Notes under the pieces: generated by a model
Seen by the model: only the letters and a program-made list of their open reading frames with translations
Told to the model about the DNA's origin: nothing
The model's database searches: none
NCBI GenBank assembly: GCA_020849765.1
Contig: JADLAY010000017.1
Location: forward strand, 44,906 to 108,905
Reading direction: 5' to 3'
DNA length: 64,000 bases
Source of the DNA: Anaerolineae bacterium
GTDB lineage: Bacteria > Chloroflexota > Anaerolineae > Aggregatilineales > Phototrophicaceae
Shown here: positions 3,544 through 44,647 of the stretch, piece by piece
Numbering within the stretch: position 1 is the first letter of the stretch
How the letters are laid out: each line of letters starts with the position of its first letter
Position numbers and translations under genes: made by a program

Positions 3544-5156
3544 GGTCGCACCTCGTAGAGCGTGAAGTTGCCGTAGCGCCCGATTTCGTCCAGGCCGCGC
3601 GTCTCACGCAGCCAGCGGACGGCGATCTCCGGGCTGAGGCCGCGCCATTGATTCTCGATCTGCCAGCGGTTGATCAGCAGATAATCGGTCGCCCCATCGC
3701 GCGCGCCGGCCAGCGTCTCCGGCGTCTGATCGTAGAGTTCGCGCGGCTCGAAGCGGGTGTAGCGGCGGAGGGGCAGCGCCAGCCCCAGGGCATAAACGCG
3801 CGCGTCGGGCGGGAGCTGCGTCTCCAACCAGGCGATCACCTGCTTGTCTTCGCTCTGGCGGGCGATGAAGGCCCTCGTGTAATCGACGCCGGTCGCGATC
3901 ATCTGCCCCAGCCCGACCGTGCAGACGATCAGCGCCAGCGCGAGCGCAAACCTGCGAACGCGATGCTGAAGCGTGAGCAACGCCTCCAGGCCGAGCGCCG
4001 CCAGCAGTGCGACCGCCGGGACGACGATCAGTGGGAAGCGGATGTTCTGGTACGGTGTCCCGGCCAGGAAGGCGTATGGCAGCAGCAGCCAGCCGAGGGC
4101 GAGGAGAGTCAGTGGTAGGGGCGCCCTCACCCTAAATCCCTCTCCCTGATGGAGAGGGACTTTCACGAGATCTTTTCGCTCCCCTTCTCCCTGAGGGAGA
4201 AGGGGCTGGGGGATGAGGGTCACAGGAGTCTGTCGTCTCTGCGACAGCGTCAACGCCCACTGCTTCCGCCATAGCAGCGCATAGACCCCAACGGCGACCA
4301 GCGGCGCGAGCCACGGCGACAGATAGATCGGCGCGTAGACCGGCTGCGCGTAGAAGGCGGCGTTGGTCGTCGCATACTCGAAATGTCCGTCGGCGTTGTC
4401 GAACGTGCTGCGCAGAGCATTGGCGGGCGACCAGCCGATCACCCACGGATGATCGAGCGCCGGGTAGGGATTGTTCAGGCTGTAGGCCGTCTGCGCGAGG
4501 ACGATCGGCAGCGCGCACAGAGCGGCGATCCCCAGGTGACGGAGCCTGGCGCGCATCGCGATCAGGGCCGCGATCCAGACCGGGACGAGGCCGAGGTAGA
4601 TCCAGCGCGTGACGACGGCGCAGACGAGCGCGACCGCCGCCAGGGCCAGCAAACCCCCACGCCCCGTGCGACCATAGTGCATGAGACCGAGCGCACTCAA
4701 ACTTGCCCAGAACAGCGCCGGAATATCCGACATGAGGACGACGCTCGACTGGATCGCCTGGCCGCCGACGGCGACGATCAGCCCGGCCAGCGCCGCGCTC
4801 CACGGGCGGCAGCCGCACTCGCGCGCCAGCAGGTAGACGATGGCACTGAGCGCGACGCCGATCAGCAGGCCGACCGCCTGCGCCGCGGCGATGCTCCCGC
4901 CGCTGACGGCGAAGACGAGCCCCAGCAGCGCCGGGTAGCCAAGCGGCCAGTAGAACGGCGGGATCGCCTCGCCATGCGCGAGCGCCGCCGACAGCCGCTC
5001 GGCGAAGTCGGCATAGGCGTAGGCGTCCTGGCCGTAAAGACCGTCGAAGCCCGCCCCGGCGAGCACGTGCAGGCGCAGCGCCAGCGCGACGAGGCAGACG
5101 AAAGCGAGGAGGAGTGAGTCGAGTGAAGGGCGAAGGCGGGGAGTCATACCACTCAC
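3540..5156 (-). CDS. glycosyltransferase family 39 / GT-C (ArnT/PMT-like) polytopic membrane protein
   Basis: 538 aa with more than 10 predicted TM helices. N-terminal loop DAYAYADFAERL is typical of PMT_2/ArnT-like enzymes. Carries an in-frame ~100-bp MITE-like insertion (PQPLLPQGEGERKDLVKVPLHQGEGFRVRAPLP). Confidence 0.75.
   Translation of the reverse strand: MSGMTPRLRPSLDSLLLAFVCLVALALRLHVLAGAGFDGLYGQDAYAYADFAERLSAALAHGEAIPPFYWPLGYPALLGLVFAVSGGSIAAAQAVGLLIGVALSAIVYLLARECGCRPWSAALAGLIVAVGGQAIQSSVVLMSDIPALFWASLSALGLMHYGRTGRGGLLALAAVALVCAVVTRWIYLGLVPVWIAALIAMRARLRHLGIAALCALPIVLAQTAYSLNNPYPALDHPWVIGWSPANALRSTFDNADGHFEYATTNAAFYAQPVYAPIYLSPWLAPLVAVGVYALLWRKQWALTLSQRRQTPVTLIPQPLLPQGEGERKDLVKVPLHQGEGFRVRAPLPLTLLALGWLLLPYAFLAGTPYQNIRFPLIVVPAVALLAALGLEALLTLQHRVRRFALALALIVCTVGLGQMIATGVDYTRAFIARQSEDKQVIAWLETQLPPDARVYALGLALPLRRYTRFEPRELYDQTPETLAGARDGATDYLLINRWQIENQWRGLSPEIAVRWLRETRGLDEIGRYGNFTLYEVRP
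4126..4224. repeat. MITE-like palindromic element, copy 1 (in-frame inside the GT39 gene)
   Basis: Ends CCCTCACCC...GGGGGATGAGGG. Internal hairpins CCCTCTCCC-TGA-TGGAGAGGGA and CCCCTTCTCCC-TGA-GGGAGAAGGGG. Confidence 0.7.
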
Positions 5157-5335: not shown

Positions 5336-6145
5336 TCATACCCGTTGCACCGGGAACTGCACCTCGGTTACGTAGGCATCCGGCGCGATACCCTCGGCGG
5401 GTCCGTGCAGATAGACCTCGCGGCTCGGCCCGGCGATCGGGTAGCCATTCTGCTCGATCCAGCGCATAACGGCGGTGTAGGCGGTGCCGATCGAGTCATA
5501 CTCGCCCTGGTAGATCGTCGTCACCATGTCCGCGCCGGGCAATGCGCGCACCTGGACGCGCCCGTCGCCCTCGCCGCCCACGATGGGCACGACGACCTCG
5601 ACGTCGCAGTCGGACTCGCGGTATTCGCCGTCGTGGAAGATCGCCATCAGCGGCCCGGTCGGCTGGATGCCGCGCGGCATCAGACTGCCGAACAGATCGC
5701 CGACGAGCTGGCCGGTGTGGCTGTAGGTCGGGATGGTGGCCCGCAGCGACGCTACCGTGAGCGACTCGACCGGCTTGAGCACGACTTCGTAGGCGGGCAG
5801 GTCGCCCTCGCGCTCGATCTGCTTGAGCCGCAGCATCAGTTGTTCCAGGCGCTGCTGCTCGGCGGCCATCTGCTGCTCGATCTCGGCGCGGCGCAGGCGG
5901 AACATGCCGCGCAGTTCGTCGGCGGAGATGTCCTCAGCGATCATCTGGCGGATCTGTTCCAGCGAGAAGCCGAGCGCCTTGAGCGCCAGAATGCGATTGA
6001 GGCGCGGCAGTTGATCTGCCGAGTAATAGCGATAGCCGGTCGCCGGGTCGACGCGCGCGGGCTGCAGCAGGCCCTCCTGATCGTAGAAACGAAGCGTCTT
6101 GACGGTGACCTGGCTCAACCTGGAGAATTCGCCGATTTTGAACAT
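5336..6145 (-). CDS. MerR-family transcriptional regulator with C-terminal GyrI-like effector-binding domain (BmrR/TipA-like)
   Basis: Internal start MFKIGEFSRLSQVTVKTLRFYDQEGLL (MerR HTH), coiled-coil linker, C-terminal GyrI-like domain. RBS AAGGACGAG upstream. The N-terminal extension of ORF 5336..6577 has no support. Confidence 0.85.
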   Translation of the reverse strand: MFKIGEFSRLSQVTVKTLRFYDQEGLLQPARVDPATGYRYYSADQLPRLNRILALKALGFSLEQIRQMIAEDISADELRGMFRLRRAEIEQQMAAEQQRLEQLMLRLKQIEREGDLPAYEVVLKPVESLTVASLRATIPTYSHTGQLVGDLFGSLMPRGIQPTGPLMAIFHDGEYRESDCDVEVVVPIVGGEGDGRVQVRALPGADMVTTIYQGEYDSIGTAYTAVMRWIEQNGYPIAGPSREVYLHGPAEGIAPDAYVTEVQFPVQRV

Positions 6146-6155
6146 GCACTCGTCC

Positions 6156-6186
6156 TTGACTCTCCCTTTAGGGGAGGGTGCATCAT
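6156..6186 (+). promoter_or_regulatory. MerR-type promoter/operator candidate (TTGAC, ~19-20 bp spacer containing dyad CTCCC-TTTAG-GGGAG, CATCAT)
   Basis: Lies in the 90-bp divergent region between the MerR gene and the GyrI-like gene. Confidence 0.4.
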
Positions 6187-6235
6187 GAGAGTAGTGTACG
6201 CCAGCATGCCCATCAGCACTACGCGGAGGAACGCG

Positions 6236-6859
6236 ATGCTCACCAAACTCGACCTCAAGAAAGATCTCAAACACCTGTACAACCCGTCGGCCAAGGACTT
6301 CAGCGTGGTCGAGGTGCCACCGCTGCGCTTCCTCATGATCGACGGCGCGGGCGATCCGAATACGTCGCCGGCCTACACGGATGCCGTCAGCGCATTGTTC
6401 GGCGTCGCTAACGCGATCAAGTTCGCCGTCAAGAAAGCGGGGCTGCTCGATTATGCCGTCATGCCGCTCGAAGGGTTGTGGTGGGCAGAGGATATGACGC
6501 AGTTCAGCACGGACGACAAATCGAACTGGCTGTGGACGGTCATGGTCGCCCAGCCGGAGGTCGTGAGCGAGGCGCACGTCGAGGCGGCACTGGCTGCGGT
6601 CAAACGCAAGGCGCCGTCACCCGCGCTGGATCGGGTGCGCTTCGAGATCTTCCACGAGGGGCTATCCGTCCAGATCATGCACATCGGCCCGTTCACGGCG
6701 GAAGGGCCGACCATCGCCCGCCTGCATGGCGAATTCATGCCCGCGCATGGCTACGTCGAAGCCGGGCAGCATCACGAGATCTATCTGACCGACGTCCGCC
6801 GCGCCGCGCCGGAGAAGTGGAAGACCGTCCTTCGTCAGCCGGTGCGCCCGCGCGGTTGA
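6236..6859 (+). CDS. GyrI-like small-molecule-binding domain protein
   Basis: Start MLTKLDLKKDLKHLYNP preceded by GGAGGAAcgcg-ATG. GyrI-like family fold signature (FLMIDGAGDPNTSPAY...). Transcribed divergently from the MerR gene. Confidence 0.7.
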   Translation: MLTKLDLKKDLKHLYNPSAKDFSVVEVPPLRFLMIDGAGDPNTSPAYTDAVSALFGVANAIKFAVKKAGLLDYAVMPLEGLWWAEDMTQFSTDDKSNWLWTVMVAQPEVVSEAHVEAALAAVKRKAPSPALDRVRFEIFHEGLSVQIMHIGPFTAEGPTIARLHGEFMPAHGYVEAGQHHEIYLTDVRRAAPEKWKTVLRQPVRPRG

Positions 6860-8151: not shown

Positions 8152-8199
8152 CTCATGTAGGGGCGAGGCGATGCCTCGCCCTGGGTCGCCCTACATGAG
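8152..8199. repeat. nested palindrome (CTCATGTAGGG-GCGAGGC-GAT-GCCTCGCC-...-CCCTACATGAG) in divergent flippase/MFS promoter region
   Basis: Inner GGGCGAGGC/GCCTCGCCC stem resembles the 32933..32960 hairpin. Confidence 0.45.
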
Positions 8200-11326: not shown

Positions 11327-12199
11327 CTAACCCGATTCGTCGACGCCGTGGACGATGCCATCACGTTCGAACTCGATCCAGTAGTGATCGGCGAAGGCCG
11401 CCAGCGCGGGGATGCGCCCGATGCGATCGTCGAGCGCAGTGAGTACACGCAGCAACGGAGGGCGCCGCTCGATCACGCCATAGATGTCGCTCGGCGGCAG
11501 CCACAGGCCGAGCGGCTCGACGCGCGTCCGCCGGAACCACGGCGCGAAATCACGTGCCAACTTGCCGGGGGATGGGTAGAAGATGGCGGGGGCGGACAGG
11601 GCACGCCCTGTCCCTACAGGCAGGTCGTGATTTGTAGGGACGTCATGCTTGGCGTCCGCCGTCGTGCGCTTGCCTTCGAAGGTCGTCCCACCGCCCCAGC
11701 GCCGGAAAGCGACGTCGAATTCACCGTGCAGCGCATGCCAGCCGATCTCCCACAGGCACAGCGGCGGCATGACGCCGAAGGCCGCCCGCCCGCCCGGCGC
11801 CACGATCGTCGCCAGCCACGCCGCGAGAGGCTGCCAGCCGCTCAGGCAGTTGAGCACACCGAAGTTGGCGAAGACGAGATCGACCTTCTCCTCCGCCGGA
11901 TATGGATTCAAGTCGCTAAGGTCAAGATGTTCGACGCGCACGTTGGCATACCCGGCCAGCTTGGTGCGGGCGGCATCGAGCATCGCTTCGCTGGCGTCGG
12001 TCGCGATCACATGGACGCCGCGCCGGGCCAGATGCAGCGCATCCTCGCCCGTGCCGCAGCCGAGTTCGAGCGCCGTCTCGCCGGGCGCGATCAGCCGATC
12101 CAGCCGTGCGTGGACGCGTTCGCGCAGGTGACGCGCGATCGGCGAGTCCGTGAAGTCGGCGTCATAGGTCGGCGCGAGCGAGTCGAAAGCTGCAGGCAT
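11327..12199 (-). CDS. class I SAM-dependent methyltransferase
   Basis: SAM-binding motif ALELGCGTGEDA, DASEAML motif. Contains an in-frame copy of the 28-bp REP-like palindrome. Follows the radical SAM gene with a 6-bp gap. Confidence 0.85.
   Translation of the reverse strand: MPAAFDSLAPTYDADFTDSPIARHLRERVHARLDRLIAPGETALELGCGTGEDALHLARRGVHVIATDASEAMLDAARTKLAGYANVRVEHLDLSDLNPYPAEEKVDLVFANFGVLNCLSGWQPLAAWLATIVAPGGRAAFGVMPPLCLWEIGWHALHGEFDVAFRRWGGGTTFEGKRTTADAKHDVPTNHDLPVGTGRALSAPAIFYPSPGKLARDFAPWFRRTRVEPLGLWLPPSDIYGVIERRPPLLRVLTALDDRIGRIPALAAFADHYWIEFERDGIVHGVDESG
11591..11619. repeat. REP-like 28-bp palindrome (GCGGACAGGGCACGCCCTGTCCCTAC), copy in methyltransferase ORF
   Basis: Stem GGACAGGGC/GCCCTGTCC with ACG loop. 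28-bp identity with the 39079..39107 copy. Confidence 0.75.
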
Positions 12200-15510: not shown

Positions 15511-15530
15511 GGGCGCATCACGATGCGCCC
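15511..15530 (+). terminator. hairpin after the substrate-binding-protein gene
   Basis: GGGCGCATC-ACG-GATGCGCCC followed by CTACTTGGCATTTGG. Confidence 0.5.
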
Positions 15531-15606
15531 CTACTTGGCATTTGGCTGTTGGTGGGTCAGAATGGCCTGCCAATAGCCGATCATTGCAACTGCCAAGAGC
15601 CAGCTC

Positions 15607-16816: not shown

Positions 16817-16840
16817 ACGGGCGGGATATATCCCGCCCGT
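16817..16840. terminator. bidirectional hairpin between convergent AlaX and cyclophilin genes
   Basis: ACGGGCGGGAT-AT-ATCCCGCCCGT. Confidence 0.55.
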
Positions 16841-27826: not shown

Positions 27827-27867
27827 AAAAACAGGCGGCGCATCGGTCAAAGATGCGCCGCCTGTTT
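27827..27867. terminator. bidirectional terminator between convergent GH5 and secreted-protein genes
   Basis: AAAAACAGGCGGCGCATC-GGTCAAA-GATGCGCCGCCTGTTT with flanking A/T runs. Confidence 0.7.
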
Positions 27868-32932: not shown

Positions 32933-32960
32933 GTGGGGCGAGGATTGCGCCTCGCCCCAC
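32933..32960 (+). terminator. hairpin after the flotillin gene (GTGGGGCGAGG-ATTGCG-CCTCGCCCCAC)
   Basis: 11-bp stem. Same GGGGCGAGG/CCTCGCCCC core as the 8152..8199 element. Confidence 0.55.
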
Positions 32961-33291: not shown

Positions 33292-33648
33292 GGGCCGGTG
33301 ACCTCTCGAACGCGGTCAAGAGCCTGCTTGATAAGGTATATACAGCCTCGGCCTCGGATATTCCCAGTCGACGCCGGGCGTAGGGATTTGGCGACGCCAA
33401 ATCCTCCACGTGAATCCCTGGCCTGCGACTATTTTCTGGCGGGGCCGGGGTGTGCCGCGTTATACTGCGCACATCTATCTGTAATCGCAATTCAAGAGCG
33501 CCCACGCGCCTCCGTCGCAGACAGATCATCGATCGGCTGGATGGTTCTAAGCGCGCTGATGGCGCAGAGTCCATCAACGAAAATGGACGGCATAGTTTAC
33601 AGATAGCGATACAGAATTATGCCTTTAAAGGAGGCGGTCTTGACTTAC

Positions 33649-37010: not shown

Positions 37011-37119
37011 GCGAACGTATCTGCGTTCATCTGACCACGTGTTGTCGAATATTTGCATCGTCGACTTACGAAATAGATAATAAACGTGGTGTACTTATTA
37101 GGAGTTCTTTCAAACCACA

Positions 37120-38775
37120 ATGCCTAGTGCATTCATCTCTTATCGCCGCGTCGAAAGCGCTGCCCTTGCCACGCTGATCGCCGTCACCTTGCAAGACAAG
37201 CATGGCATTGAAGTTTTCGTCGATACCCGCAGTACCGACGGTGGTGGCCTGTTTCCTGACCGCTTGCGCCGCGCCATTGAACATTGCGACGTATTCGTTT
37301 GCCTGCTTGGCGCGACGACGCTGGAATCCGCCTGGGTGATGGAAGAGATCGAACATGCGCATAACTTGCGCAAGACGATGATCCCGGTCTTCCAGGAACG
37401 TTACGTTCCGCCCAACCCAATTCCCAGCGTACACGTCGAAGCACTGCTGCAATCGGATGGATTGCAGGTTCTTGATGTGCGCAACGTGTACGTCGATCAA
37501 GCTATCTCCGACTTGGCGTCAATGATCAGAAGATCCGTCGGTGCTCCAATGCCGCCGCCCAGGCGAGGCATCGGGTTACCTCTGATTGCCGCAGTCTTGG
37601 TGTTGCTCGCGTTAGTCGCCCTTGGCATCTTCCTGGTGTCTCGCGCCATGGAATCCCCCACTTCAACAGCCAGTCCGACACAGATCGCGGGTGGTGTGAC
37701 CGCCAGCACCACCATCGAGCAACCCACCGCTGCACCGACAGAAGATGCGGCTGGCACACGGGTCGCCCAATTGCAGGCCAGCCTGACCGCCTTGGCGCAA
37801 CTTCAAATCGTAGGGGAAGAAACCGCGACGGCGGACGCCGCAACGCGTGGTGCTGCTGCACAAATCGATGCGACTTTGCGGGCAGCCGCGGACACCGCGA
37901 CCGCGGCTGCCCTCGCTATCACGCAATCCGTATTGGGTGAAACGGCGACTCAGCAAGCCATTGACGCGACCGCGATAGCTAGTGTATCGACAGATACTCC
38001 CACCCCATCCGCGACACCTACGCCTATCACACTGGAATATGCTTACGCCCAGGCAGTAAATTATGATGATGGTCAGGGAAATACGGCATGGACGCCTATT
38101 GCATATACGTTTGGGGATGGCGTGACGATGGTTCTAGTACCGACGGGCTGCTTTTTGATGGGTAGCAGCGAAGGTAATATTAACGAACAGCCCATCAATG
38201 AGCAGTGCTTTGTCGTGCCATTCTGGATCGACCAGACTGAAGTGACACAGGCCGATTTTGTACGTCTGAGTGGACAAAAGGCGGCCCCGAATGAATTTCC
38301 TGCTGACCAACACCCCGTTGAGAATATCACTTGGTTCGAAGCACGTAATTTCTGCGTGTTGCGGGGTGCGCGCTTGCCAACAGAGCGCGAATGGGAATAT
38401 GCAGCCCGCGGCCCTGAAGGATGGATCTACCCATGGGGAAACATGTGGGACACGAGCTATGCTGCATGGAACCGGAGTAGATCGCAAAGAACCGCCATCG
38501 TGGGAACAGCATCAAATGGGGTTTCCTGGGTCGGTGCACAGGATATGAGCGGCAACGTCTGGGAGTGGGCGAGCTCCCTTTACCAGCCGTACCCCTATGC
38601 GGCAGACGATGGACGAGAGGGGGATATGAGAGACCTTGCGGATGCTCAACGTGTGTTGAGAGGCGGTTCTTGGTACTACGTCAGTACTATTGGCCTACGC
38701 GCGCCTACGCGCAGCGGACTCGACCCAATAGCCAAAGACAATCTATTAGGTTTCCGTTGCGCCCGCGATGTCTGA
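37120..38775 (+). CDS. TIR domain - TM helix - Thr/Ala-rich linker - FGE-sulfatase (SUMF1-like) domain fusion protein
   Basis: N-terminus SAFISYRRVES and SAWVMEEIEHA (TIR alphaC SxW..E motif with the conserved Glu). One TM (LPLIAAVLVLLALVALGIFLV). C-terminal FGE-sulfatase signatures GNVWEWASS, RGGSWYY, GFRCARD. AT-rich promoter region 37010-37120. Confidence 0.8.
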   Translation: MPSAFISYRRVESAALATLIAVTLQDKHGIEVFVDTRSTDGGGLFPDRLRRAIEHCDVFVCLLGATTLESAWVMEEIEHAHNLRKTMIPVFQERYVPPNPIPSVHVEALLQSDGLQVLDVRNVYVDQAISDLASMIRRSVGAPMPPPRRGIGLPLIAAVLVLLALVALGIFLVSRAMESPTSTASPTQIAGGVTASTTIEQPTAAPTEDAAGTRVAQLQASLTALAQLQIVGEETATADAATRGAAAQIDATLRAAADTATAAALAITQSVLGETATQQAIDATAIASVSTDTPTPSATPTPITLEYAYAQAVNYDDGQGNTAWTPIAYTFGDGVTMVLVPTGCFLMGSSEGNINEQPINEQCFVVPFWIDQTEVTQADFVRLSGQKAAPNEFPADQHPVENITWFEARNFCVLRGARLPTEREWEYAARGPEGWIYPWGNMWDTSYAAWNRSRSQRTAIVGTASNGVSWVGAQDMSGNVWEWASSLYQPYPYAADDGREGDMRDLADAQRVLRGGSWYYVSTIGLRAPTRSGLDPIAKDNLLGFRCARDV

Positions 38776-39313
38776 TTGCGACCACACTTACCCCCAGCGC
38801 AAATCGCCTCGTCTCCGCGACTATGATTACGCACAATCCGGTGCATATTTCGTCACCATCTGTACCTATCGACGTGAGCATCTCTTTGGCGAGGTCGTCG
38901 ATCAACAGATGCATCTGTCGCGGATGGGATCGATTGCTCATGACCTGTGGTACACCATCCCCGATCATCATTCGCAGGTCGAACTCGATGCGTTCGTCGT
39001 CATGCCCAACCATGTCCACGGCATCATCGTTGTAGGGACGCCGCGTGCGGCGTCCGGCGGCGAGAATGATGGGCGATCGGCGGACAGGGCACGCCCTGTC
39101 CCTACGGAATCGCTCGGAGCGATCATCGGTGCGTACAAGTCCGCCGTGACACGCACCGTCAATCAGGCGATGAGGTTGGTCGCGCCGACGGTCTGGCAGA
39201 CGCGCTATGACCATCACATCATTCGCAGCGAGCACGATCTAGACCGCATCCGCGCCTACGTCGCCGACAACTCCGCGCGATGGCTGGATGACACGCTGTT
39301 CACAAAAGGATAG
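38768..39313 (+). mobile_element. REP-associated tyrosine transposase (RAYT, IS200/IS605-like Y1 HUH transposase)
   Basis: HUH motif NHVHGIIVV and catalytic Tyr context RYDHHIIRS. Start ATG overlaps the TIR-FGE stop (ATGTCTGA). Contains an in-frame copy of the 28-bp REP-like palindrome. Confidence 0.8.
39079..39107. repeat. REP-like 28-bp palindrome, copy inside the RAYT ORF
   Basis: Identical core to 11591..11619. Encodes SADRARPVPT in-frame. Confidence 0.75.
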
Positions 39314-41577: not shown

Positions 41578-41699
41578 CCTACCCTCAACCCCGTCCCCTT
41601 CTCCCTGATGGAGAAGGGGAGAAAAATCGGTTCTGAAAGTCCCTCTCCCTGACGACCAAAGGGAGCACCGAAGGTTGGGAGAGGGATTTAAGGTGAGGG
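41578..41699. repeat. MITE-like palindromic element, copy 2 (inverse orientation, TetR-MMPL intergenic region)
   Basis: Both termini match copy 1 ends in reverse complement (CCCTCAACCCCGTCCCCTTCTCCCTGA / GGGAGAGGGATTTAAGGTGAGGG). Confidence 0.7.
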
Positions 41700-44487: not shown

Positions 44488-44520
44488 GACGGGGCAAGAA
44501 AAAACCCGCGTCATTTGGCG
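44488..44520. terminator. bidirectional intrinsic terminator between MMPL gene and tRNA-Gln
   Basis: AAAAAA-CCCGCG-TCATTTGG-CGCGGG-TTTTT. A longer imperfect palindrome at 44441..44488 precedes it. Confidence 0.75.
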
Positions 44521-44522
44521 CG

Positions 44523-44593
44523 GGTTTTTATACTGGGGGACCTGGATTCGAACCAAGATCACCTGGGCCAGAACCAGGCGTTCTGCCGTTGAA
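44523..44593 (-). tRNA. tRNA-Gln (anticodon CUG)
   Basis: Hand-folded cloverleaf from the reverse complement: acceptor UGGGGGA/UCCCCCA with the U1-A72 pair typical of bacterial tRNA-Gln, U8, D-stem GUUC/GAAC, anticodon loop UUCUGGC, T-loop UUCGAAU, discriminator G. No encoded CCA. Confidence 0.75.
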
Positions 44594-44647
44594 CTATCCC
44601 CCATAGTTCGAAGCGAATAGTAGCACAGCCCCCACGCCCGATCAAGG

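Follow-up and report, generated by a model that had tools for sequence, protein, structure and literature searches.

Within the 64-kb stretch of DNA analyzed here (the window), a gene for a RAYT, or TnpA_REP-like Y1 HUH transposase, occupies positions 38768 to 39313 of the plus strand as an open reading frame of 181 amino acids plus stop. It is preceded on the same strand by a gene of 551 amino acids (37120 to 38775) that codes for a TIR domain, a transmembrane region, and an FGE-sulfatase domain (Pfam TIR_2 and FGE-sulfatase). The two genes overlap by 8 nt, ATGTCTGA (38768 to 38775), in which the ATG of the RAYT at 38768 meets the stop of the TIR-FGE gene, just as originally predicted. The RAYT gene carries a pair of inverted REP-like hairpins in its own coding region, and a second doublet is found in frame inside a class I SAM methyltransferase gene on the minus strand (11327 to 12199), the homologs of which carry Methyltransf Pfam domains. 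For this locus, we computed gene family, hairpin anatomy, insertion status, homolog prevalence, conservation, and synteny.

The RAYT open reading frame matches the Pfam family Y1_Tnp (PF01797) with an E value of 3.8e-7 (30.7 bits against a cut-off of 23), and its score for the NCBIfam equivalog NF047646 (REP_Tyr_transpos) is 53.2 bits (E value of 2.8e-14), under the cut-off of 80. Judging from its sequence, the protein is kin of the RAYTs modelled by NF047646 and no equivalog of them. The E. coli TnpA_REP structure 4ER8 is its sole sequence match in the PDB, with the HUH, WQ, and Y-NP motifs aligned, and when the AF2 model was used in Foldseek, the top 30 PDB matches were all Y1 transposases, 4er8 among them. 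The earlier assignment to the RAYT-type Y1 HUH enzymes is therefore supported by the Pfam family, the NHVH motif, and the 4ER8 match. Compared with its counterpart in the syntenic stretch L110, the gene has a dN/dS of 0.23 and a dS of 0.38, the latter within the range of the neighboring genes (0.29 to 0.45); it is a resident, vertically inherited, domesticated hairpin-cutting transposase gene.

The motifs of the family are largely in place. The HUH motif NHVH (residues 81 to 84, 39008 to 39019, plus strand, from the translation) has N81, H82, and H84 invariant in alignment A1, and its strand aligns to PEHMHCI of 4ER8. The motif WQTRYDHHIIR (39194 to 39226, plus strand), in which WQ are residues 143 and 144, corresponds by alignment to 4ER8 to residues W94...R104 of E. 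coli TnpA_REP, which have a role in GTAG recognition (PMC6006769). The Y motif YVADNS (39257 to 39274, plus strand) aligns to DYIYINP of 4ER8, which includes the catalytic Y115 and N119 (roles from PMC6006769), and contains the putative catalytic Tyr164 and the putative metal ligand Asn168, both invariant in A1. This alignment rules out RYDHHII as the catalytic-tyrosine motif; the position of its Tyr is occupied by F in 28 homologs. HUH, Y164, N168, W143, Q144, and R153 are all kept in A1. Two nearly invariant positions are not, as H takes the place of the acidic GTAG-contact residue, for which 112 of 116 homologs have D, and the residues that follow the catalytic Tyr are NS here and NP in 111 of 118; these substitutions make the present-day activity of the RAYT uncertain.

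What had been described as a perfect 28-bp palindrome at 39079 to 39107 is actually a REP unit tagged with GTAG, whose stem has 9 bp and whose loop has 2 nt. On the plus strand, this unit (unit 2, 39082 to 39105) consists of the hairpin GGACAGGGC-AC-GCCCTGTCC (39082 to 39101, with 9-nt arms and a 2-nt loop) followed by the tag CTAC (39102 to 39105), so that it is GTAG-tagged on the minus strand, and it is read as DRARPVPT, in keeping with the SADRARPVPT reported before for the RAYT frame, which the translation bears out. Its description as REP-like also holds, since a hairpin with a GTAG tag is the type that RAYT enzymes act on. Upstream of it lies unit 1 (39032 to 39055, plus strand), a GTAG tag and the hairpin GGACGCCGC-GT-GCGGCGTCC, read as VGTPRAAS. 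The two hairpins are different and are separated by a spacer of 26 nt (39056 to 39081, plus strand), forming a REPIN-like inverted dimer of 74 nt (39032 to 39105) in the order GTAG-hairpin, 26 nt, hairpin-CTAC. The original prediction overlooked the doublet, as both the RAYT and the methyltransferase site hold two REP units.

The dimer encodes a loop directly after the HUH motif, which is a low-confidence part of the AF2 model. The core of the model has a pLDDT of >90, and residues ~90 to 115, between strand 82-89 (beta3) and helix 116-135 (alphaC), form a coil without secondary structure and with a pLDDT of 55 to 58. Distant orthologs lack the inserted segment (alignment A1), and the dimer amounts to ~20 residues extra compared with the homologs with the shortest loops, and not to the 9 to 10 proposed earlier.

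In the methyltransferase, a copy of unit 2 is present at 11594 to 11617 on the minus strand. The earlier claim of an identical 28-mer in both genes stands as an exact recurrence, but the identical stretch has a length of 27 nt (39079 to 39105 and 11591 to 11617). The 26-mer that had been quoted occurs exactly twice in the 64-kb window, at 39080 to 39105 and 11592 to 11617, and no shuffle gave two occurrences. Similarly, GTAGGGAC was found four times, always in the four REP units, against an expectation of 0.5, and no shuffle reached four. The second hairpin of the methyltransferase doublet, GTAG-GGACGTCA-tgct-TGGCGTCC (11634 to 11657, plus strand), is degenerate and has one G.T pair (C.A on the other strand). 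Rfam at gathering thresholds gave one tRNA only in the whole window, with no match at either repeat site. Methyltransferase orthologs without the segment exist, and the same site holds REP-derived inserts that vary among close relatives (alignment A3), so the idea of an in-frame insertion in both genes, RAYT and methyltransferase, is confirmed by distant orthologs of each (A1 and A3). A recent insertion into the methyltransferase was ruled out, as its ortholog L192 has the same doublet.

The hairpins have changed very little. The two RAYT units are the same in L110, with 0 differences in 48 nt, compared with 66 in 448 nt (14.7%) over the remainder of the gene (P of about 0.0005), and with 3 differences in the 26 nt of the spacer, a region where L110 has an additional 18-nt partial duplication. 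The full conservation of both in-gene hairpins against a divergence of 14.7% shows that they are old and that their DNA sequence is maintained. Unit 2 of the methyltransferase is 100% kept in L192, so that three of the four hairpin units (the RAYT pair and this one) are unchanged between the two genomes. The degenerate hairpin shows 4 differences from L192, with a different uncompensated change in each lineage.

Other GTAG-tagged hairpins are scarce in the window. We found three extragenic ones, at 8157 to 8181 (plus strand, stem GGGCGAGGC), 15511 to 15534 (minus strand, stem GGGCGCATC), and 33380 to 33404 (plus strand, stem GGATTTGGC), the first of the same class with a different stem. The total is seven hairpins with five different stems in 64 kb, too few to show a high-copy cognate REP family for this genome. 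No REPs flank the RAYT within ~5 kb, and the region from 33404 to 56387 is devoid of GTAG-tagged hairpins except for the in-gene pair; in L110, the RAYT has no flanking GTAG-tagged hairpin in the stretch 5880 to 6570. This absence of flanking REPs is unlike the usual REPtron arrangement and counts against the explanation that we favor below.

The in-gene hairpins are a widespread trait of the relatives of this RAYT. GTAG-tagged hairpins are present in the same loop in 68 of 76 metagenomic homologs (89%), with the loop position shared across an identity range of 35 to 50%; the loop hairpin is absent in the other 8, and some homologs have half-units only. A RAYT carrying its own REP, which the original prediction considered unusual, is a known trait of subclass 2.4 (PMC6006769). 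In the homologs, GTAG-tagged hairpins reach a density of 14.0 per kb in the loop, while the remainder of the gene has 0.18 per kb and the flanking sequence 0.41 per kb. For the 43 distinct loop hairpins of alignment A4, a formal count of covariation was dropped as circular, as the hairpins had been chosen by their pairing; instead, we asked how often a GTAG/CTAC tetranucleotide has a hairpin after it, and this is the case for 85% of them in the loop, 5% in the remainder of the gene, and 9% in the flanking sequence. Two reading frames are used through the GTAG (43 and 14 cases), and the one in which TAG would be a stop is not used at all. The stems vary between homologs, with complementarity kept, and the hairpin lies anywhere from 4 to 58 residues after the HUH motif, with 0 to ~120 amino acids inserted between NHVHGI and LGxIIGxYK in A1. 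A two-hairpin dimer with different stems, as found here, occurs in 11 of the 76 homologs, and a single double-foot hairpin is commoner (41 of 76). A stem common to flank and in-gene hairpin was found for 63 of 131 flank hairpins, and the share of identical in-gene arms goes from 0% at a RAYT identity of 30 to 40% up to 34% at 60 to 70%.

The 24-mer of unit 2 is itself an exact REP in several phyla, where, among the matches listed, it was found in at least 109 stretches, dominated by a Prevotellaceae MAG, and accompanies distant RAYTs. In other genomes, it forms at least 41 outward-tagged pairs, most of them with spacers of 27 to 31 nt, and no inward pairs, again among the matches listed.

In-gene REPs have been described as a unique feature of TnpA_REP subclass 2.4 (Quentin et al. 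2018, BMC Genomics 19:475, PMC6006769), which is the RAYT Group 4 of Bertels et al. 2017. The feature, as read from the sequence, is real and a new example of an oddity described in 2018. The RAYT resembles the subclass in having NHVH, WQ, a length of 181 amino acids (~180 to 195 in the class), and no C-terminal tail domain, in the hypervariable insertion between beta3 and alphaC, in the GTAG-tagged hairpins within this insertion (two here, 39032 to 39105), and in its taxonomic range, which in the subclass extends to Chloroflexi-type lineages (Caldilineae in Bertels). The motifs listed for subclass 2.4 are NH[IFV]H for HuH, WQ for W, and YIxNNP for Y (Table 1 of PMC6006769); YVADNS keeps the Y and the second N of the last and has V, D, and S at the places of I, N, and P. 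In the canonical long REPs of the subclass, the foot is GT[AG]G and the lowest three pairs of the stem are G-C, double-foot REPs being the other type, while the REP here has a GTAG foot and a 9-bp stem starting with G-C, G-C, A-T (GGAC...GTCC; most homologs have GGGC). Further differences are the H at the GTAG-contact position, where D is conserved, the insert being a two-hairpin dimer with different stems instead of the commoner single double-foot hairpin, and the lack of REPs within about 1 kb, that is, of a REPtron arrangement; flanking REPs are found in the large majority of subclass 2.4 members, not in all (PMC6006769). According to the same authors, the inserted region is peripheral and "may have little impact" on activity. 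No biochemical test of any Group 4 or subclass 2.4 enzyme is reported in the cited RAYT literature.

Other known systems share only part of these features. E. coli TnpA_REP (RayT, YafM; 4ER8; Group 2) has the Y1 HUH fold, and its HUH, WQ...(D/E)H..R, and Y...NP motifs align, but it is ~17% identical to this RAYT and its gene has no internal REP. E. coli REPs and BIMEs have GTAG at the 5' foot of the hairpin and REPs paired in inverted orientation, although they have bulged stems and are extragenic, unlike the in-gene REPs described here. REPINs (Bertels and Rainey 2011) also consist of two inverted REP hairpins with a short spacer, but the element here is inside a coding sequence, and since its two arms have different stems, it cannot fold into one long hairpin. 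Rickettsia palindromic elements (RPE; Ogata et al. 2000) and the intragenic GTAG/CGTC REPs (Di Nocera et al. 2013, PMC3733652) are likewise in-frame palindromic repeats at permissive sites, with hot spots common to orthologs and host genes that stay intact; RPE differs in being longer and without a link to a RAYT, while here the RAYT itself is one of the host genes. The TnpA of IS200/IS605 has the fold and single-strand hairpin chemistry in common with the RAYT, which differs in being single-copy, syntenic, and without subterminal LE/RE hairpins, and in having N, not Q, after the Tyr. An IS200/IS605 insertion sequence was rejected, as NF033573 scored 19.9 bits against a cut-off of 55, and the gene is single-copy, has a dS like its neighbors, and has no flanking hairpins.

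All these data are best accounted for, with a probability that we put at roughly 0.82, by a RAYT of subclass 2.4 (Group 4) with its own in-frame REP dimer, tolerated in the protein and intact as DNA, next to an independent TIR-FGE gene. If it works like the Group 2 and 3 enzymes that have been studied, the protein would bind such hairpins on single-stranded DNA, reading the GTAG foot with its WQ..(D/E)H..R motif, and Tyr164, with the HUH-bound metal, would cut and rejoin the DNA, an activity that would spread REP copies through the genome. Hairpin binding, GTAG dependence, and cleavage at CT are established for other RAYT groups only (PMC8266576, PMC3479197), and from this analogy we infer that the protein is active on the in-gene hairpins and placed them there. 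The copies that survive would be those in permissive, disordered loops with the frame kept, presumably here the loop between beta3 and alphaC of the RAYT itself and one at the surface of the SAM methyltransferase; as REP copies would survive in such loops, the in-gene dimer would be the RAYT's own REP, tolerated by the protein and intact as DNA. The TIR-TM-FGE gene is probably a horizontally acquired, independent insertion just upstream of the RAYT that may now provide its transcription and translational coupling.

The original prediction went further and took both genes as co-transcribed and possibly co-mobilized. Co-transcription is plausible from the 8-nt overlap, the promoter-like site (37052 to 37081) upstream of the TIR-FGE gene, and the lack of any terminator-like site between the two genes. 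One mobile unit could also be suspected from the GC content, which is below that of the neighbors in both genes (0.52 to 0.62 in the TIR-FGE gene against 0.65 to 0.69). Co-mobilization is, however, contradicted by L110, with the order CxxCxxCC, regulator, 90-amino-acid ORF, Hexapep, RAYT, serine dehydratase, TetR, and MMPL, where the RAYT begins 29 nt past Hexapep in the same chromosomal slot without a TIR-FGE gene. Besides, the RAYT dS of 0.38 is inside the range of its neighbors, no REPs and no inverted or terminal repeats bracketing the pair were found in the window, and P0003, a 63%-identical RAYT homolog, sits in an unrelated neighborhood without a TIR-FGE-type gene, so that the positional conservation of the RAYT is limited to close relatives. 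A single mobile unit is thus very improbable, and the TIR-FGE gene is a neighbor outside the RAYT/REP system. Even less credible, to the point of being negligible, is that the palindromes are not REPs, being by-products of peptide selection or chance. VGT/VGA and xPT motifs do recur in the loops of the homologs, as VGT...VPT-type loop motifs under selection would, but the tag and hairpin are read in two different frames, the stems differ among homologs and are still complementary, identical units are found outside genes and beside RAYT genes, shuffles never reached the observed counts of the 26-mer or GTAGGGAC, and the encoded segment is predicted to be disordered in the AF2 model.

Two other explanations keep the hairpins as REPs. 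The RAYT could be an inactive relic and the hairpins decaying fossils of past REP activity, as suggested by the rare D-to-H and NP-to-NS changes, the lack of flanking REPs and the few REPs in 64 kb, and the uncompensated changes of the second methyltransferase hairpin in both lineages. We find this improbable, given that the open reading frame is intact with a dN/dS of 0.23 over a dS of 0.38, that the HUH motif, Y164, and N168, together with W143, Q144, and R153, are kept, and that three of four hairpin units are unchanged between the two genomes, the opposite of neutral decay. The reading with a tolerated dimer has its own difficulty, as in-gene hairpins that are almost universal and perfectly conserved are more than mere tolerance predicts. 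The dimer may instead be a selected part of the system and not a passenger, either an autoregulatory cis element (binding site) in its own gene or mRNA or a protected master or seed copy that links enzyme and substrate for joint inheritance and transfer. Pointing this way are the prevalence of 89% at one loop among homologs 35 to 50% identical, the hairpins without differences against 14.7% elsewhere in the gene, the in-gene hairpin that in homologs usually equals the flanking REPs and codiverges with the protein, the retention of the dimer here with any flanking REPs lost, and, among the matches listed, the same 24-mer with distant RAYTs in other phyla. On the other hand, the loop hairpin is missing from 8 of the 76 homologs and represented by half-units only in others, the position varies from 4 to 58 residues after HUH, and the region is peripheral with little effect on activity according to the authors of PMC6006769. 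Unit 2 is just as well conserved in its methyltransferase copy, in an unrelated gene, so that conservation goes with the REP itself and not with its location inside the RAYT. We hold a selected dimer to be an unlikely explanation.

The locus is a further case, from the Anaerolineae, of a peculiarity already documented for one RAYT subclass, in which the feature that seemed unusual is the rule. What is added to that description is quantitative, namely, that the in-gene REP has a prevalence of ~90%, usually equals the flanking REPs, avoids the stop-containing frame, and is, in this lineage, base-perfect over a gene divergence of ~15%. If the dimer were a selected part, this would explain why ~90% of a RAYT subclass keeps a perfect cognate hairpin at one loop and why the dimer survived here after the loss of flanking REPs, and an enzyme and substrate travelling as one gene would explain the identical REP units found with distant RAYTs across phyla. 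These figures sharpen the question of whether REPs located in RAYT genes are just carried along or have a working role in the partnership between RAYT and REP.

The gene at 38768-39313 (+) is a 181-aa ORF coding for a RAYT-type HUH enzyme, as had been read from the sequence. The protein has an above-threshold match to Pfam Y1_Tnp, although its score against NCBIfam REP_Tyr_transpos (53 bits) is below the equivalog cut-off of 80, and the top 30 Foldseek matches of its AlphaFold model (pLDDT 82 overall, core >90) are all Y1 HUH transposases. The only PDB sequence found by a profile of 35 RAYT homologs was E. coli TnpA_REP (4ER8), with an alignment spanning the HUH strand, the WQ..(D/E)H..R motif, and the Y...NP motif. 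Both of the latter motifs are modified in the window. In WQTRYDHHIIR (39194-39226), the D lies one residue earlier than in the homologs, leaving an H in place of the D found in 112/116 of them. The position aligns to E100 of E. coli TnpA_REP, which contacts GTAG (PMC6006769). YVADNS (39257-39274) has NS where 111/118 homologs show NP. These two substitutions may reflect a changed specificity or lost activity.

The repeat inside this gene was originally described as a perfect 28-bp palindrome shared with a methyltransferase gene. It is instead a hairpin (9-nt arms, 2-nt loop) with CTAC after it, and the identity between both sites extends over 27 nt. The 26-mer quoted in the original prediction occurs at only two sites in the window (39080-39105 and 11592-11617), a number of matches reached by 0 shuffles. 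The repeat is in frame in both genes, as stated, reading SADRARPVPT in the RAYT and keeping the frame of a class I SAM methyltransferase on the minus strand. A hairpin followed by CTAC is a GTAG followed by a hairpin on the opposite strand, and the GTAG tetranucleotide at the 5' foot defines the REPs bound and cut by TnpA_REP (PMC3479197, PMC8266576, PMC3733652). Each site contains two such units. In the RAYT gene, unit 1 (GTAG-GGACGCCGC-GT-GCGGCGTCC, 39032-39055) is separated by 26 nt from unit 2 (GGACAGGGC-AC-GCCCTGTCC-CTAC, 39082-39105), while in the methyltransferase the copy of unit 2 (hairpin-CTAC, 11594-11617) is separated by 16 nt from an imperfect unit (GTAG-GGACGTCA-tgct-TGGCGTCC, 11634-11657). 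The four occurrences of GTAGGGAC in the 64 kb are exactly these four units, and as single-stranded DNA both doublets are predicted to fold better than shuffles (z -2.9 and -2.3). No REPs flanking the RAYT were found in the window, a further reason for caution about its activity. Three more GTAG-tagged 9-bp hairpins, with other stems, are intergenic (8157, 15511, and 33380).

The window also carries a palindromic repeat family that lacks the GTAG tag, (T)CCCCTTCTCCCT-loop-AGGGAGAAGGGG(A), in three copies (4137-4159, 4181-4205, and 41594-41620). Further strong hairpins are found at 27829-27867, 44500-44529, 16817-16840, and 32933-32960: two terminator-like ones with A/T flanks and stems of 16 and 11 bp, a perfect 12-bp palindrome (ACGGGCGGGATA/TATCCCGCCCGT), and a GTGG-footed one (GTGGGGCGAGG...CCTCGCCCCAC) directly past a gene end. 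The sole Rfam match in the window is a tRNA gene (44533-44603, -).

Alignments with orthologs, the check proposed for the in-frame insertions, show that the REP segments are insertions in both genes. Across 35 aligned RAYT homologs, NHVHGI and LGxIIGxYK are separated by anything from a few to ~120 residues, and the REP-coded segment of the window protein (approximately residues 89-113) lies in this interval; the model shows it as a low-confidence coil, with strand 82-89 before it and helix 116-135 after it. The methyltransferase segment is missing from distant orthologs, while in close relatives the inserts at this site derive from REPs and vary, with both units, only one or the other, or none. 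The methyltransferase family has a second hypervariable insertion site (alignment columns ~105-150; proteins P0126, P0130, P0139, and P0195), where P0126 also has REP-like coded peptides (..NAVPT.., ..ACLVPT..).

A REP inside a RAYT gene had been considered unusual, but it is the rule in this family. A metagenome scan provided 80 homolog loci (proteins 35-50% identical), with the loop delimitable in 76, the syntenic relative L110 included, and GTAG-tagged hairpins were present in the loop-coding DNA of 68 of these 76. Tagged arms reach 14.0 per kb in the loop, compared with 0.41 in the flanks and 0.18 in the remaining gene sequence. As a test without selection on pairing, we chose the fraction of GTAG/CTAC tetranucleotides followed by a hairpin of ≥7 bp, which was 85% in loops, 9% in flanks, and 5% in the other parts of the gene. 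A single "double-foot" hairpin (GTAG-stem-loop-stem-CTAC) was found at 41 loci and the outward-tagged dimer of the window type at 11. The stems vary between homologs with their complementarity kept, and an identical in-gene arm is shared by 0% of homolog pairs at 30-40% protein identity and by 34% at 60-70%. At many loci, the in-gene hairpin is repeated in the flank, ~100 nt or nearer to the gene, and 63/131 flank hairpins have the same stem as the in-gene one. The loop GTAG is read as GTA-GGG (43 cases) or xGT-AGG (14), with 0 cases in the TAG-stop frame among the homolog loops. Five loops (L138, L184, L132, L163, and L182) contain tandem partial REP arms coding for low-complexity peptide repeats (VGAVQNVGAVQN..., GTTNMGTTNVGMTN..., NPSPQNPSPQ...), suggestive of slippage at the site or of repeated abortive insertion there.

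The exact 24-mer GGACAGGGCACGCCCTGTCCCTAC is common to at least six phylum-level groups (loci L001-L109, e.g., L003, L022, L026, L024, L071, and L086), the matches listed including Prevotellaceae, Muribaculaceae, Bacteroidaceae, Rhodothermales, Spirochaetaceae, Omnitrophota, and several Anaerolineae. Among these matches it is mostly extragenic and often paired with other GTAG-GGAC/GGGC hairpins, forming at least 41 outward-tagged pairs, mostly with 27-31-nt spacers, and no inward-tagged ones. In a Muribaculaceae contig (L098, 6930-7560), it adjoins a RAYT homolog of 34% identity that has no loop REP; at the 3' end, the reading frame of this RAYT runs through an array of these units (VGTGRALS..., VGKGRALS...), and a further one adjoins its start. 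One Prevotellaceae MAG has the 24-mer as a high-copy REPIN-like dimer, and in the Anaerolineae MAG BC1.4 it lies within a longer, MITE-like repeat of ~150 nt that has terminal inverted repeats (ggtagtggt...accactacc) of its own.

L110, a JGI contig, codes for a RAYT 81% identical to that of the window, and shares the gene order CxxCxxCC, regulator, 90-aa ORF, Hexapep, RAYT, serine dehydratase, TetR, and MMPL. The RAYT start does overlap the stop of a 551-aa TIR_2 plus FGE-sulfatase ORF, as originally noted (8 nt shared, ATG within ATGTCTGA), and cotranscription is plausible. The suggested comobilization is not supported: L110 keeps the RAYT slot without the TIR-FGE gene, its RAYT starting 29 nt past Hexapep. 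The TIR-transmembrane-FGE-sulfatase gene with its 110-nt AT-rich upstream spacer, which contains a promoter-like site, is an indel against L110 (37011-38775), and its GC content is 0.52-0.62 versus 0.65-0.69 in its neighbors. From this synteny, the lower GC, and the spacer, we conclude that the RAYT is a fixed resident gene and the TIR-FGE gene an independent indel, which looks like an acquired defense-type gene that displaced the original RAYT start region. The TIR part matches ThsB-like defense models (PADLOC, E 5e-11). Between window and L110, the RAYT (dN/dS 0.23, dS 0.38) is similar to its neighbor genes (0.09-0.20 and 0.29-0.45).

Units 1 and 2 of the RAYT show 0/48 nt differences from L110 versus 66/448 elsewhere in the gene (P ~0.0005). 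The spacer has three changes plus an 18-nt partial duplication in L110 (~6330-6350), which repeats the left arm and loop of unit 2 (GGCGGACAGGGCACGCCAAAC) directly upstream of the intact unit. The methyltransferase ortholog L192, found in the same sample, also carries this REP doublet, with unit 2 identical to the window copy and the other hairpin carrying four differences, including a separate uncompensated change in each lineage. As these relatives also contain the doublets, the insertions are older than the split of the genomes, and, as three of the four units are unchanged, these are preserved as DNA sequence, whether by selection or by homogenization.

Subclass 2.4 of TnpA_REP (Group 4 of Bertels) was defined by Quentin, Siguier, Chandler, and Fichant in 2018 by three motifs (NH[IFV]H, WQ, and YIxNNP), a protein length of 194 aa in the median, and a beta3-alphaC insertion that varies strongly and is modeled as peripheral; the predominance of REP insertions within tnpA_REP genes is its "remarkable and unique feature" (PMC6006769). 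Group 4 members are frequent among Cyanobacteria, Chlorobia, and Caldilineae (Bertels et al. 2017), and GTAG-tagged and intragenic REPs have been catalogued in many genes (Di Nocera et al. 2013, PMC3733652). Only for enzymes of Groups 2 and 3 is it established that they bind hairpins, depend on GTAG, and cleave at CT (PMC8266576, PMC3479197), and by analogy the window RAYT would act on its in-gene hairpins. Most likely, the RAYT is a domesticated Y1 nuclease/transposase working on GTAG-footed hairpins in single-stranded DNA, and copies of its REP persist where they entered permissive, disordered loops without a frameshift, its own loop among them. The main alternative, in which the REP inside the gene serves as a cis element under selection or as a linked master copy, we consider unlikely. 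As Quentin et al. already define this feature, the window RAYT is a further example of a described kind.
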